Assembly: GCA_949840465.1 (NCBI GenBank)
Contig: CATKXE010000006.1
Location: forward strand, 964 to 64,963
Length of the DNA stretch: 64,000 nt
Source: an uncultured Lachnospiraceae bacterium
GTDB lineage: Bacteria; Bacillota; Clostridia; Lachnospirales; Lachnospiraceae
Direction of reading: 5' to 3'
In this document: in pieces, positions 7,022-52,424 of the stretch
How positions within the stretch are numbered: position 1 is the first letter of the stretch
Layout of the letters: each line of letters starts with the position of its first letter
Notes under the pieces: generated by a model
What the model was told of the DNA's origin: nothing
What the model saw: the letters and a program-made list of their open reading frames with translations, nothing else
Database searches by the model: none
Made by a program: the position numbers and the translations under genes

Positions 7022-7046
7022 CTACTTTAAATCTAACATTACAAGA

Positions 7047-7125
7047 TGCCCTTTGGGTATACATTGCCGGACGTAGTCCGCCTGCCCCGAAGGGGCGTGA
7101 ATTACGGTGTGCCCTTTGGGTATAC
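7047..7125. repeat. 63-bp-period palindromic repeat element, intergenic copy
   Basis: 16-bp direct repeat tgccctttgggtatac at 7047 and 7110. Between them are hairpins cggac-GTA-gtccg and gcccc-GAA-ggggc. A homologous copy lies at 49473-49578. Confidence 0.85.
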
Positions 7126-7171
7126 TACTATGGATTATAGCATCATTCTACCCTTTCTTGCAATGGTAGAA

Positions 7172-47802: not shown

Positions 47803-48795
47803 CTAACCCAAATTTCCGGTAAATCTCTGCTTCATTGTCCACAGTATTCTAAACGGCGGGAAATAGAAACATCCATAAAACAGCAACTTTGTTCTTCCTG
47901 GGAGCTGCCTGTATAAAGGGTGCCTGATTTCCGTCATCATCATCCTTCTGAAATGATAACAGCTTTCTCTGTCCTTTTTTCTTTTCGCTGCCAGATACTC
48001 TGATAAGATTCCCCATACGATCTTATTTCCCCACTTTAGCGCCCAACGATCGTGTCCCATATCATATTCCTGAATTTTTATCCTTTCACATACCCGGAAA
48101 AACTGGAAATTTTTATCCCCCTCATCTGAATGCATCAGACTGCCCTGGCGCATCCTGTAAAAATACCCTGCGTCATCCAAATAAGCCATCCTCATCCCTT
48201 TACATGCCAGGCTGTGTATAAATATGGTATCTTCTCCTCTTAAAAGACCCTCGTCAAACTTTCGTTTTTCTATCATATCCCGGCGTATCATTTTGCCTCC
48301 GATTCGGGATAATTCGTGTCCGAATTTACAATGGAACCATTCTCCCGACTCCTCTTTCTCTCCAATTTTCCACGTCCCCTTTAACTCTTCTTCGGACATC
48401 CTCCTGGCTTCCTGTTCCATTTTCAAATCATCAAGTTGTATACAGATACAGAATGCCAGGTCTATATGGTGTGATTCCGCCTGCCGGACATATTGTTCCA
48501 ACAGGCATGGATGGAGCATGTCGTCACTGTCCAGAAAAAAAATATATTTGCCGGACGCTTCTTCCAATCCCCTGTTCCTCGCAGACGACACCCCTTTTCT
48601 TTCCTGGCTTAATATCTTTATTCTTCTGTCATGTAAGCGGAACTCCCTGCATATATCCAGACTCTGATCCGTGGAGCCGTCATCTACCACCAGAATCTCC
48701 AGACAATGATAAGTCTGGCTGAGCACCGATTCAAGGCATTGCATAATATAGGCTTCCGCATTATACATTGGGATAATTACTGATACCTTTATCAT
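47803..48795 (-). CDS. GT2 glycosyltransferase
   Basis: VIIPMYN, VVDDGSTD, SARNRG, FLDSDD. Confidence 0.92.
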   Translation of the reverse strand: MIKVSVIIPMYNAEAYIMQCLESVLSQTYHCLEILVVDDGSTDQSLDICREFRLHDRRIKILSQERKGVSSARNRGLEEASGKYIFFLDSDDMLHPCLLEQYVRQAESHHIDLAFCICIQLDDLKMEQEARRMSEEELKGTWKIGEKEESGEWFHCKFGHELSRIGGKMIRRDMIEKRKFDEGLLRGEDTIFIHSLACKGMRMAYLDDAGYFYRMRQGSLMHSDEGDKNFQFFRVCERIKIQEYDMGHDRWALKWGNKIVWGILSEYLAAKRKKDRESCYHFRRMMMTEIRHPLYRQLPGRTKLLFYGCFYFPPFRILWTMKQRFTGNLG

Positions 48796-48819
48796 ACGTC
48801 CTCCAACTATTGTTTAATT

Positions 48820-49962
48820 TCAAAATAATATAACCGCTTTTTCCATCCACTCCAGAATCCGGTAACTTATTTTACATATCACTTCCACCGTTCCATAACA
48901 TCTGATCCTGTAAAAGAACAAAAGCACCCTTCTCGGCATGGGACCCATTTTCCGGTTGTACCTCATCGCTTCATTATAAATTTTATTTTTCTGCATTGCC
49001 CGGCATAGCCTGCGGTTTTCTAATCTGTTTCTGGGACTATATGGATGAAAAATTCCTTTGATCAGAACATCCGCCATGCCAAAAAGCACCATATTGTAAT
49101 ATGCCCTTTCCATTCGATGAAAGAGGCCAAACCTGTGCAGCATATTCTTCAAACATTTCTGGTATTTCAGGTTATTTTTCAGAAAGCCCCTATGAAACCT
49201 GTGCATCGCCGAGTCCGGCCGTATCTGTACAAAACAGGCTGTTGTCTGCATATATGCAAAAGACTCTGTATTCATAAAATACTCCAGATTAAAAAGCCGG
49301 TCTTCCCCCAGCACAATATCCTCCGGAAAACGAATGGAACCCCTGTCTATCACGGATTTTCTGTACGCCTTGGCACAGGGAGAAATCAGGTTTGTGCCGC
49401 CGCCTTTTACCAGTTGTCTGCCATACAGCAAATTTTCAGCCAGTTTCAGCTTATTCTTTTCCTGATGCCTCATCGGACGAAGTCCGCCTGTCCCGCAGGG
49501 GCATGGATTGCGGAATGCCTTTTGGGTATCCCTTATCGGACGCAGCCCGCCCGCTCCAGTGAAACATGCATTGCGAAAGTTACTTTTCTCGTCTTTTTTC
49601 TTCAGCAACGCATAATCGAAAATCAGAAGGTCACAACGGTGGTTTTCTTTTCGCAGAATCCAATTAAAAAAATCAGCAGAGATTACATCATCCGAATCTA
49701 CAAATACAATCCATTCTCCCCGGCTCTCATCGATCCCCCTGTTTCTCGCGGCAGATACTCCCTGATGTTCCTGATCGAAAAACCTGACGCGGCTGTCGCT
49801 CCTGGAATACCTCCTGCAGATTTCAGGGCTGGAATCACTGGAACCGTCATTTACTAAAATCAATTCAAAATCCTGGCAGGAAGAATGCAATACAGAATCA
49901 ATACATCTTCCCAAATACCCTGCCGTATTATAAACAGGCACAATGACTGAAATCATGAACAT
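48820..49962 (-). CDS. GT2 glycosyltransferase carrying an in-frame repeat insertion
   Basis: VIVPVYN, FVDSDD, GEDRLFN. Internal 21-aa-period duplication FRNACFTGAGGLRPIR / FRNPCPCGTGGLRPMR. Confidence 0.9.
   Translation of the reverse strand: MFMISVIVPVYNTAGYLGRCIDSVLHSSCQDFELILVNDGSSDSSPEICRRYSRSDSRVRFFDQEHQGVSAARNRGIDESRGEWIVFVDSDDVISADFFNWILRKENHRCDLLIFDYALLKKKDEKSNFRNACFTGAGGLRPIRDTQKAFRNPCPCGTGGLRPMRHQEKNKLKLAENLLYGRQLVKGGGTNLISPCAKAYRKSVIDRGSIRFPEDIVLGEDRLFNLEYFMNTESFAYMQTTACFVQIRPDSAMHRFHRGFLKNNLKYQKCLKNMLHRFGLFHRMERAYYNMVLFGMADVLIKGIFHPYSPRNRLENRRLCRAMQKNKIYNEAMRYNRKMGPMPRRVLLFFYRIRCYGTVEVICKISYRILEWMEKAVILF
49473..49578. repeat. 63-bp-period palindromic repeat element, intragenic copy
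   Basis: tcggacgaagtccgcctgtcccgcaggggcatggattgcggaatgccttttgggtatcc aligns without gaps to 7066-7125. A second partial unit starts exactly 63 bp later, at 49536. Confidence 0.85.
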
Positions 49963-49973
49963 CCTCTTTCCCA

Positions 49974-51002
49974 TTATCCCGGCAAAATCACCCTGCCAAC
50001 GGTCTTTGCCAGAAGCCGCCCAAGTTCCGGCGCTTTCCTCACAACCCACATTGCAGCCTTTTGATAGCCCGCAGTCTTTGGAGAGGCCATAAACAGATCT
50101 GCATACCGCTCCAATTCCTCCATACAGATCTTCCAGCTTTCACAGTCCGGTGAGAAATCCGCCTTTTTACACCGCAATGCCTCTTCATACCAAAAGGCCA
50201 TGAACCGGAATGCATACTGTAATTGATGCGCCGTCAATTTTCCATTGCCGGCCTGCTCGCCTGTCTGCAGGATCCAGTTCATTGCCTGGCATAGTTCATC
50301 CACGGTACGTGTCTGCGACGTCAGGCTTCCCGCGTGTTTACAGTAGAATACGCCATAGAAGGGGATCACCTCCATCCATCCGTCACATCGGCTGAGGTAT
50401 CTGCATATAAATACAAAATCTTCAAACTCCGCCAATTCTTCCGGAAACTCTACCAGCAGGCATCCCTGCCTGTCCAGAATTTTTTCACGGCGGAACAAAA
50501 CCGGGCAGACGCTCATCAAAATCTGTTCCCACATCACTAATTCCAAAGCCGTCTCAGGACATTGACGGTACTGCCTCTTCAACGGATACTGCCAGTGCGC
50601 CGGATTTCCATTTTTATCGCAGATCTGCCGCCCGCAGGCCGCCAGATCATTTCCTTTCAGAAGGCTTTCGGCCAGCCGCTCGATCATCTGCGGGTGCAGC
50701 ATGTCATCTGCGTCCATAAAACCGATAAACTGTCCTTTCGCAAGCTGAAGCCCGGCATTGCGCGCGCACGCAGGGCCGCCATGCGATATATTGATTAATT
50801 CGATTACCGGCCCGGCTTTCTCTTTTGTTTTCTCTATAAACTGCCTGACAATCTCCTCCGTCCTGTCAGTAGAGCCGTCGTTCACCACAATCACCTCATA
50901 ATTACGGTAAGTAGAAGCAAGAATACTTTCTATACAGCGCCCGATCCTCTGTTCCTGCTGATACGCCGGTATAATGATTGAAACGAATCTATCCATCTTC
51001 AT
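49974..51002 (-). CDS. GT2 glycosyltransferase
   Basis: IIIPAY, VNDGSTD, ARNAG, FMDADD. Confidence 0.92.
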   Translation of the reverse strand: MKMDRFVSIIIPAYQQEQRIGRCIESILASTYRNYEVIVVNDGSTDRTEEIVRQFIEKTKEKAGPVIELINISHGGPACARNAGLQLAKGQFIGFMDADDMLHPQMIERLAESLLKGNDLAACGRQICDKNGNPAHWQYPLKRQYRQCPETALELVMWEQILMSVCPVLFRREKILDRQGCLLVEFPEELAEFEDFVFICRYLSRCDGWMEVIPFYGVFYCKHAGSLTSQTRTVDELCQAMNWILQTGEQAGNGKLTAHQLQYAFRFMAFWYEEALRCKKADFSPDCESWKICMEELERYADLFMASPKTAGYQKAAMWVVRKAPELGRLLAKTVGRVILPG

Positions 51003-51032
51003 TGCCTCCGGTACTGAAAAATACTTTTTGCC

Positions 51033-52424
51033 TCAGGTACAAGCCAAAGACCCCGCCGCCGGCCGGGTTTCCTGTTTCTCCATCCCATTCCTGCCATCTT
51101 CCGTACTCAGGCGTCCTAACATCGTTCTTCCTCCCACATCGGATCTATTTGCGAAGCGAATCAATGCGCCGTCATTTTTCCTCCTTGCTTCCAGAAACAG
51201 CTCTCCATTATAAACCTCCGCTACACAGGAAAGCCGCCTTGTTTCCCCGCTTCTCCACCCGTTCATTCGGCTTTCCAGTATTTCGGCACAACATTTTCCA
51301 TTCCCGTCCCTATATTCCAGCCGGATCTCACCTTCCTGATAAAATGCGGCAAATCCGGTATTTTCTATCTCAATTTCGATGCAATATTCTCCGTTTCCTT
51401 TTCCGGCTCTGTGTACATCCACTTTCCGGATTAAAAAGCGGTATCCCAGATGCGCCCCTACATAATCAAACACGCTCTTTCCCGCCCAAATCCCGGTTCC
51501 CGGATATTTCCACTCTTTCCACAGATCCAAGACCCTTGTATCATGAATCCGGTTCAGATATGTAATCTGCATCTGCCGCAGATCTGCTATAACCTTTTTC
51601 GGTGTAAGCCGCTTTATATATCCATTGTGGTATACCGCTTCTCCGCCGTTGGGCGCCAGCCTGCATAGTTCCTGCTCAAATGCCAGTTCCTGTTCCCGCT
51701 GCCAGGGCTCGTTCCATATCTTTTCTTCTTGCCCTCCCTCTGCAAACGTTCCCATATGGCTTGCTGAACCAAACATCCCGTCATCGAATAGCCCCATTTT
51801 ATCTGTGCAGGACAACGCCCCCTCTTTTTGCCCCTCATGTAATCTGCGCCAGTATACGGGACGCCTTACTTCCAGAAATGTCTGCTCCCCTTTCTGCATG
51901 GAAAGTATTTTTGACAACTCAGCCATCCTGCGCGTATCTAAAAACCGGGAACCGTGCATCTCTCCCCAATTCCCCAACAGCATTCCCTGAAACACGAAAA
52001 CAGAAGGGGCGCTAAGAGCGATTACACCGCCAATCTGCCGCAAATGAGCCTGCACCACAGCAAAATCCACAGGCTCGCGGACAAGCGCCCTTCCTTCATG
52101 ATCATACACCGCCCTTACAATGCAGTCATACCGGTTTTCCGCAAAAAAAGAGAGAATACGGCAGATCCGCTCCAACACCTGGCTGTCCAGGTTCTTTGCA
52201 CGAAAATGTCCAATATCAATCAGTACAAGAGCCAGCGTATCTTCCCGGTTCAGGCACCATTTCTGCTCTTCAAAGTCCGGCTCCTCGTCCGCCGGAAACG
52301 TATAAATCTGATACCATCCTCTGGCCGGATTTATGAATGCTTCTGTGGTTTCTCTCAAATCGCTTTGCTCAAAATTCCATTTTCTGCCCTTTATTTTTAA
52401 CCTTTCAAACAGATTGGCCAACAC
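51033..52424 (-). CDS. DUF4874/DUF4832-like protein, putative glycoside hydrolase
   Basis: INPARGWY, GNWGEMH, GLFDDG, NGGE, HLGYRF, IENTGFA. Family call is from recall. Confidence 0.65.
   Translation of the reverse strand: MLANLFERLKIKGRKWNFEQSDLRETTEAFINPARGWYQIYTFPADEEPDFEEQKWCLNREDTLALVLIDIGHFRAKNLDSQVLERICRILSFFAENRYDCIVRAVYDHEGRALVREPVDFAVVQAHLRQIGGVIALSAPSVFVFQGMLLGNWGEMHGSRFLDTRRMAELSKILSMQKGEQTFLEVRRPVYWRRLHEGQKEGALSCTDKMGLFDDGMFGSASHMGTFAEGGQEEKIWNEPWQREQELAFEQELCRLAPNGGEAVYHNGYIKRLTPKKVIADLRQMQITYLNRIHDTRVLDLWKEWKYPGTGIWAGKSVFDYVGAHLGYRFLIRKVDVHRAGKGNGEYCIEIEIENTGFAAFYQEGEIRLEYRDGNGKCCAEILESRMNGWRSGETRRLSCVAEVYNGELFLEARRKNDGALIRFANRSDVGGRTMLGRLSTEDGRNGMEKQETRPAAGSLACT

Follow-up and report, generated by a model that had tools for sequence, protein, structure and literature searches.

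The window analysed here is the whole stretch of 64,000 nt, corresponding to positions 964-64963 of contig C6 (window coordinate = C6 coordinate minus 963) in a 3.69-Mb draft genome of 206 contigs (G000). It includes three adjacent GT2 glycosyltransferase genes, and the middle one carries two head-to-tail copies of a 63-nt repeat unit, a further copy of which lies elsewhere in the window between two co-directional minus-strand genes. The features concerned are as follows.

7037-7126, plus strand: intergenic copy of the repeat, one partial and one full unit (repeat search; nhmmer matches at C6 8000-8028 and 8023-8089)
48820-49956, minus strand: GT2 glycosyltransferase gene, host of the repeat (PF00535, E 1.9e-31; 679 homologues; AlphaFold2; Foldseek)
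49462-49578, minus strand: 39-aa peptide encoded by the units, residues 127-165 of 378 (translation; AlphaFold2)
49469-49531, plus strand: unit A, a near-consensus 63-nt repeat unit (nhmmer E 2.7e-17; covariance model R1, 82 bits)
49532-49594, plus strand: unit B, a decayed unit head-to-tail with unit A (nhmmer E 5e-5, model positions 3-47)

The open reading frame of the host gene (48820-50049, minus strand) runs through both units. Its most likely start is the ATG at 49956, which gives a protein of 378 aa as in all of the 679 homologues. The protein has a GT-A fold with a DxD motif (DSDD; D87, D89 and D90) that is invariant among homologues, and the closest solved folds found by Foldseek are those of the wall-teichoic-acid glycosyltransferases TarS, TarP and RmlT. 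The peptide encoded by the repeat, FRNACFTGAGGLRPIRDTQKAFRNPCPCGTGGLRPMRHQ, is placed between the strand DLLIFDY and the helix KLKLAENLLYGRQ. The initial annotation had proposed that the frame is kept in a glycosyltransferase which gains a peptide after DLLIFDY, and both points are borne out.

The region around the host gene (47803-52424) comprises the three consecutive GT2 genes followed by a gene of 463 aa and looks like a conserved surface-polysaccharide locus. The order GT2-463-aa gene is repeated in G008 and in metagenome contigs L170-L172, where it adjoins an ABC-transporter ATPase; counterparts of the 463-aa gene in L170 and L172 carry DUF4874/DUF4832.

Unit A is antisense to the host gene and reads CTCA-TCGGAC-GAA-GTCCG-CC-TGTCCC-GCA-GGGGCA-...-ATGCCT-TTT-GGGTATCC. 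Unit B, which was also placed by alignment of the segment to two consensus units, has one mismatch in its first hairpin and has lost the second, and its profile match stops at about 49575. After correction for model position in the nhmmer profile, the two units start 63 nt apart. The relationship with the intergenic copy that had been noticed at 7066-7125 is confirmed by an ungapped alignment of 56 nt (49474-49529 with 7068-7123, 84% identity), as is the exact period of 63 bp, since members of a 25-nt repeat at 7038, 7101 and 49507 show this spacing.

The repeat belongs to a large family within the genome. Iterated nhmmer profile searches of the genome contigs gave 136 matches, 123 of them with E<1e-3, which merged to 91 loci, and a covariance model (R1) built from 35 units (alignment A3) recovers the copies, with 118 matches. 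The consensus unit is TAC-CTTA-TCGGAC-GAA-GTCCG-CC-CGCCCC-GCA-GGGGCA-TGTATTACGGG-ATGCCC-TTT-GGGTATAC. Units occur in direct arrays of one to three with a period of 63, and only one adjacent pair is inverted (C16 50794/50836). On a crude ORF map, approximately 85% of the loci are intergenic or overlap only gene ends or short doubtful ORFs and approximately 15% lie inside genes (14 genic loci); as about 90% of the genome is coding, units are strongly depleted from coding DNA. A scan of the window against Rfam at gathering thresholds returned no match. The first or last bases of several contigs fall within the repeat (C5:2, C8:66920, C17:47756, C26:37469, C51:1, C18:54 and C80:15411), which implies that it causes assembly breaks and that the copy numbers given here are lower bounds. 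There is also a local hot spot of eight repeat loci within 5 kb (G000:C4:12296-16824); genes affected there include a histidine kinase, with one unit in its ATP-binding domain, and a nucleoside-hydrolase-like gene with three.

The orientation of the copies is random with respect to genes. Between co-directional flanking genes 25 intergenic copies are sense and 24 antisense, which rules out the antisense bias that we had considered for them, and the genic copies are divided equally (seven sense, seven antisense). Copies are found between divergent genes (11) more often than between convergent genes (3) and this, together with the random gene orientation, speaks against a terminator-like role or one at the ends of mRNAs. 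With local GC skew as the reference the counts are 38:53, a comparison whose power is limited by the draft state of the genome; with the other orientation counts, it lends no support to a mechanism involving lagging-strand single-stranded DNA.

Each unit includes three mini-hairpins, with 95.5% of cells paired compared to 21-45% in slid controls. Hairpin 1 (CGGAC-GNA-GTCCG) is almost invariant. In hairpin 2 (GYCCC-GNA-GGGRC) both partners have changed at four of the five pairs (23 cells), with a covariation score reached by none of 500 shuffles. Hairpin 3 (ATGCCC-TTT-GGGTAT) shows only one-sided variation and includes a fixed G.T pair, the only strand-asymmetric feature of the stems: counts of G.T versus A.C single out no functional strand in hairpin 1 (6:8) or hairpin 2 (15:7). 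The loops had been described as varying only as G-N-A and as evidence of selection at the level of the DNA hairpin. The first statement is correct for the five hairpins then considered, but among 73 full units G-N-A is found in 56 for loop 1 and likewise in 56 for loop 2, the remainder being mostly A-N-A; in both loops the first base is G or A, the middle base is free and the last is nearly always A. The second stands in part. It agrees with the compensatory changes in stem 2 and with the retention of the G..A loops. However, when the consensus and the GT2 segment were folded as DNA or RNA and on both strands, the predicted energies were not below those of shuffled sequences (z -1.1 to +0.8), so that the structure is supported by pair conservation and covariation and not by thermodynamics, and old genic copies have lost hairpins, the older GT2 unit being without hairpin 2. 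The compensatory changes split subfamilies, which indicates that propagating copies keep the stem and does not imply upkeep of each copy in place.

The position of the insert in the host protein was examined in an AlphaFold2 model calculated with 120 homologues (pLDDT 90, pTM 0.89). The only segment with pLDDT <50, residues 126-158, coincides with the repeat peptide and is flanked by a strand (110-117) and a helix (166-178); the insert therefore probably occupies a variable surface loop, where the fold would tolerate it, and is predicted to be disordered. Compared with the gene of G008, dN/dS is 0.15 for the 119 N-terminal codons and 0.21 for the 205 C-terminal codons, implying that the gene stayed under purifying selection with the insert present, and the value of 0.50 for the loop indicates that it is evolving under relaxed constraint. 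From the open frames and this constraint, we infer that the insert is translated as an extra loop.

Alignment of orthologous GT2 proteins bears on the origin of this loop. The distance between the LIFD and SPxAK motifs has a median of 52-53 aa in the homologues and is 77 aa in the window protein. In the five nearest orthologues (71-74% identity) the loop is 56 aa long and carries a single antisense unit (e.g. RASRNACSCGAGGLRPIRC), recognised by nhmmer in the orthologue DNA with E 4e-17 in P0002 and 2e-10 in G008, and the difference between the window gene and the syntenic gene of G008 is exactly 63 nt. A unit in sense orientation is found in P0007 (65% identity; YTLLDEVRSLEDIRYVMSFGH) and another in the P0010/P0013 (G006) clade (YILSDEARPSRGGIDHGMPFGH), and no unit is present in P0008 and P0009 (57-60% identity) or in most of the GT2 family. 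The unit of G008 is identical to unit A at 44/64 positions and to unit B at 37/63, but this does not identify the extra unit since the G008 unit and unit A are both closer to the consensus. Orthologues with one unit are only 3 aa longer than the empty homologues, so a deletion of the native loop must also be assumed: the loss apparently took place at the A-rich KKK codons and removed approximately 41 nt of native loop as well as the unit's final bases. Two other GT2 homologues of alignment A6 have surplus sequence in this part of the protein: P0019 has 21 additional residues in the same loop (SGRAASSLPSAFPFRIPALPRLPGCGSALSPMLHLY), and P0025 carries an insert of 11 aa a few residues upstream of the loop.

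The GT2 gene is not an isolated case. When genes had to encode 150 aa or more and to extend for 30 codons or more on both sides of the unit, 14 in-frame sites were counted in 13 genes of this genome. Pfam domains place them as follows.

ArgRS: insert in the DALR domain
GH36 alpha-galactosidase (G000:C23:3820-3984): Melibiase domain split; three units, or 2.3 units in the comparison with orthologous sites
Histidine kinase: insert in the HATPase_c domain
DUF1015 protein: insert in or between domain parts
TruA: domain split
GrpB: domain split
MBOAT protein: insert in or between domain parts
Nucleoside-hydrolase-like protein: three units
FtsX permease: two units
Radical-SAM protein: insert in or between domain parts

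In ArgRS the insert is 45 nt (15 aa; nhmmer E 7e-7) and the region measures 621 nt; in nearly every other species of the genus the insert is absent and the region is 576 nt long. TruA, with an insert of net 63 nt, is empty in G008 and in most of the species that aligned. The same ArgRS loop has 9 extra residues in G003 (L130), whose additional sequence does not match the unit profile, and 29 in G005 (G005:C38:9597-10259). At the GH36 site, G014 (L145, C17) and G034 (L146, C15) carry a different in-frame insert of 57 nt (AGTCTGACAGAATCGGGAAACGCGCCCGGATGGCCGGAACGGATC...) at the same codon position, and G009 (L144, C57) a longer one. The unit profile matches none of these GH36 inserts, which may belong to another family of in-frame repeats or derive from an older copy of the present unit that is no longer recognisable.

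Four of the six reading frames of the consensus are open, including all three sense frames; in the antisense frame that includes a TAA, genic copies have this triplet mutated. All seven sense genic copies (C1, C4, C16, C23 and C49) share one frame, the most hydrophilic (TLSDEVRPPRRGMYYGMPFGY), which suggests filtering for peptides compatible with loops.

Empty and filled versions of the same sites, together with the left flanks, show where the units insert (a slash marks the junction). In the 58 leftmost units, the four bases preceding NTTR are A in 53, T in 46, A in 49 and C in 54. The base before this ATAC is T in 33 of the 58 and the sequence is random beyond, with no further upstream conservation. 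Internal junctions read GGGTATAC in 27 of 27 cases. The empty GH36 site of G013, a species without any units, reads GACGTATATAC/AGCAG (in short, GTATATAC/AGC), and the filled site of G000, 147 nt or 49 residues longer, GATGTATATAC/ATTATCGGAC... For TruA, the empty site of G008 in the orientation of the element is GGAATCATAC/GGGCCTG (in short, AATCATAC/GGG), and the filled site of G000 GGAATTAAAC/CTTGCCGGAC...GGGTATATA/GGTCTG. The empty GT2 site of P0009 is TGTATACATAC/GTATGGGAAAAAAGAT, with the core CATAC/GTATGGG. Here, the sense unit of P0007 follows ACGTATAC/ and GTAT comes immediately after the antisense units of the G008 clade: the palindrome ATAC/GTAT provides the same junction on both strands, which explains the two orientations at one spot. 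These three empty sites and 58 left flanks thus place the insertion directly 3' of (T)ATAC.

The ATAC is present at both ends of the unit and once in the empty sites, a pattern expected both if a preferred target is duplicated over 4-5 bp and if insertion is target-specific and duplicates nothing. The ends of the unit are direct (ATAC...TATAC) and without terminal inverted repeats. As the unit ends in TATAC, it recreates its target, a straightforward way in which head-to-tail arrays with an exact period could arise. Alternatively, arrays could arise by local duplication and not by repeated insertion; near-identical units are common within arrays and are explained equally well by both.

Among related bacteria the family is patchy. 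Of 29 species of the genus, the covariance model detects it in 17, each having from 10 to at least 118 copies, and 12 have none; it is also detected in 4 of 120 other genera of Lachnospiraceae. In a survey of GTDB genomes by pattern scan followed by the covariance model, confirmed hosts were Schaedlerella arabinosiphila DSM 106076, Lachnospiraceae bacterium M18-1, Lachnospiraceae bacterium 3-1 and Bacterium D16-56, to which can be added many mouse-gut metagenome-assembled genomes labelled Lachnospiraceae, Dorea, Clostridia or Lachnoclostridium. Single pattern matches in Actinomycetota and other phyla were rejected by the covariance model and are due to chance.

A mobilising HUH enzyme, whose presence had been suggested as a point to verify, was sought and none fitting the repeat was found in the genome. 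There is a single PF01797 (Y1/HUH) gene (G000:C188:1-800). Alignment of its region with seven copies from related genomes (L163-L169) delimited an IS200-like element whose left end is TTT/ATTGTCTG... (in a longer form, TTT/ATTGTCTGTATAATGGGG...) and whose right end is ...GGTTCAGTT/ (also written ...ACCGGCTTTAGCCGGTAGTGGTTCAGTT/). These ends and their hairpins are unrelated to the 63-nt unit and the element is not flanked by units. Its Y1 transposase is about 150 aa long, and species of the genus that have the element carry 1 to 15 copies of it. The distribution of Y1 genes in the genus does not follow that of the repeat: 24-30 units but no Y1 gene are found in G038 and G005, and Y1 genes but no units in G035, G036, G018 and G011. 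The resident IS200-type transposase is therefore not supported as mobiliser, given its different ends, target and genus distribution. No autonomous parent element and no transposase was revealed between inverted units, where the only genes found were those of a GT2, a membrane protein and a response regulator.

Taken together, the segment very probably represents two head-to-tail copies of a small dispersed non-coding repeat, inserted in the variable loop of the GT2 protein and translated there. The family is dispersed and patchily distributed in related species, its units are present or absent at orthologous sites, and the host genes remain open and constrained. We propose that the unit spreads by a site-specific mechanism acting in trans, which would recognise ATAC together with the hairpins. 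The TATAC end of each unit would recreate the target, allowing more units to be added head-to-tail. Genic copies would survive by virtue of the length of 21 codons, the four open frames and selection keeping only insertions in tolerant loops, and a copy once in a gene would then drift as coding sequence.

A more ambitious version of this proposal is tentative, and we consider it possible but doubtful: the units would constitute an undescribed class of site-specific mini-elements, inserting 3' of ATAC in either orientation and providing their own target, mobilised by an enzyme that is neither an inverted-repeat transposase nor an IS200 TnpA. The 21 codons, the four open frames and the single hydrophilic frame would then be adaptations for persistence in essential genes.

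Other explanations account for part of the data. The unit could be a REP- or PATE-like element moved by a Y1 (HUH) transposase that works on hairpins in single-stranded form, in the manner of RAYTs with REP sequences or TnpA with IS200/IS605 ends. Subterminal hairpins, the lack of terminal inverted repeats, insertion 3' of a fixed tetranucleotide, the strand-asymmetric G-N-A triloops and the presence of a PF01797 gene in the genome are all in keeping with this. It is nevertheless unlikely: that sole Y1 gene resides in an element with unrelated ends and hairpins and no flanking units, Y1 genes and units occur in separate species, there is no orientation bias with respect to GC skew or genes (38:53 and 25:24), and the arrays are direct instead of inverted pairs. 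Alternatively, the units could serve the host as structural motifs, such as mRNA-stabilising or protein-binding hairpins of the REP/BIME kind, with the genic copies as by-products. Most loci are indeed intergenic or at gene ends and the pairing of stem 2 is kept by compensatory changes, but orientation relative to flanking genes is random (25/24), copies are more frequent between divergent than between convergent genes (11 vs 3), there is no T-run, predicted stability does not exceed that of shuffles, no Rfam match was found and the family is absent from 12 species of the same genus; this possibility seems unlikely as well.

That the segment is native coding sequence, derived from tandem duplication of a loop peptide or from a module acting at the protein level as in PARCELs, is very improbable. 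It would fit the period, a multiple of three, the repeated peptide and the one hydrophilic frame of all seven sense genic copies, but is already contradicted by the approximately 85% of loci that are non-coding, as well as by genic copies in both orientations and three frames, by the unrelatedness of the host proteins, by the empty orthologous sites and by the loop's dN/dS of 0.50 and predicted disorder. When the 39-aa peptide was compared by phmmer with 1.84 billion proteins there was a single weak match, the query being too short to inform. Finally, an assembly or binning artefact is hardly credible in spite of the contigs that end in the repeat and betray disturbed assembly, since the identical 378-aa protein on three contigs, in seven member sequences, argues against misassembly, orthologues from independent genomes and assemblies carry a unit at the same codon position, and the reading frame is intact.

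The initial annotation had regarded the segment at 49473-49578 as a Lachnospiraceae analogue of the Rickettsia palindromic elements (RPEs) and streptococcal BOX elements which creates new protein loops. This interpretation is supported: the orthologue indel and the dispersed copies agree with it, and the segment is neither native to all orthologues nor without copies elsewhere. In-frame selfish DNA within genes has been regarded as particular to Rickettsia and is usually tied to small populations and weak selection. The same behaviour is now seen in free-living gut Lachnospiraceae, including the cultured mouse-gut bacterium Schaedlerella arabinosiphila, and affects essential genes (ArgRS and TruA) and, in the GT2 case, a cell-surface polysaccharide glycosyltransferase. 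The family thus provides a culturable system in which to address element movement, the possible effects of loops on enzymes and the rate at which new protein loops arise. In practical terms, the repeat breaks short-read assemblies and inflates ORF calls, and microbiome studies might take its 21-aa indels for differences in protein sequence that are specific to strains.

In comparison with known systems, the family shares with PARCELs, which are coding repeats (PMC2996958), tandem DNA repeats of dyad symmetry, translation within ORFs and a patchy distribution. However, PARCELs are repeats of 25 residues making up whole proteins of unknown function, whereas the 63-nt family is mostly non-coding and its genic units are single to triple inserts in enzymes. 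Pneumococcal BOX elements and bacterial MITEs with in-frame copies, such as ERIC and the Coxiella QMITE1, are likewise small and multi-copy, with a tandem module (boxB) and occasional overlap or fusion with ORFs (PMC10969869, PMC5896051). The ends of BOX elements are formed by two different modules, A and C, and a MITE has its terminal inverted repeats and parent IS; none of these was found for the 63-nt unit, and in-frame genic copies are much more systematic here. REP/BIME sequences and PATEs resemble the unit in their short GC-rich hairpins, adjacent short motif, lack of terminal inverted repeats and high copy number. Unlike the REP/RAYT system, the family has no associated RAYT or cognate Y1 gene flanked by units, forms direct arrays and not mainly extragenic inverted pairs, shows no preference for 3' ends and no strand bias, and has about 15% of its loci inside genes; the replication orientation bias of IS200/IS605-derived PATEs is also absent (38 vs 53, within the limited power of a draft genome).

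The closest parallel is with the RPEs, dispersed palindrome-rich repeats found in frame inside Rickettsia genes (Ogata et al. 2000, summarised in PMC10969869) and described in a 2024 review as the extreme case of in-frame MITE-like insertions (PMC10969869). Both are dispersed non-coding palindrome-rich families with a sizeable share of copies in frame in unrelated functional or housekeeping genes, where the added peptide is placed so that the fold can accommodate it, and no transposase is known for either. In the present family this is seen in the multi-copy dispersal with hairpins, in the frame-preserving genic copies and in the position of the insert, predicted by the AlphaFold2 model, in a tolerant loop. 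RPEs are approximately 100-150 bp long and restricted to Rickettsia, whereas the 63-nt unit consists of three hairpins of 5-6 bp, forms head-to-tail arrays with a fixed ATAC junction and is hosted by free-living gut Firmicutes. The likeness is thus one of behaviour, with no relatedness in sequence expected, and, as the host is a member of the Lachnospiraceae, membership in RPE families 1-10 is not claimed. Since a literature search yielded no description of this 63-nt repeat and the family lacks both the RAYT gene and inverted pairs of REP/RAYT systems and the terminal inverted repeats and parent IS of MITEs, we consider it to be RPE-like in kind and new as a family; it is through the model of an ATAC junction and of a unit which provides its own target that it might prove to be more than RPE-like.
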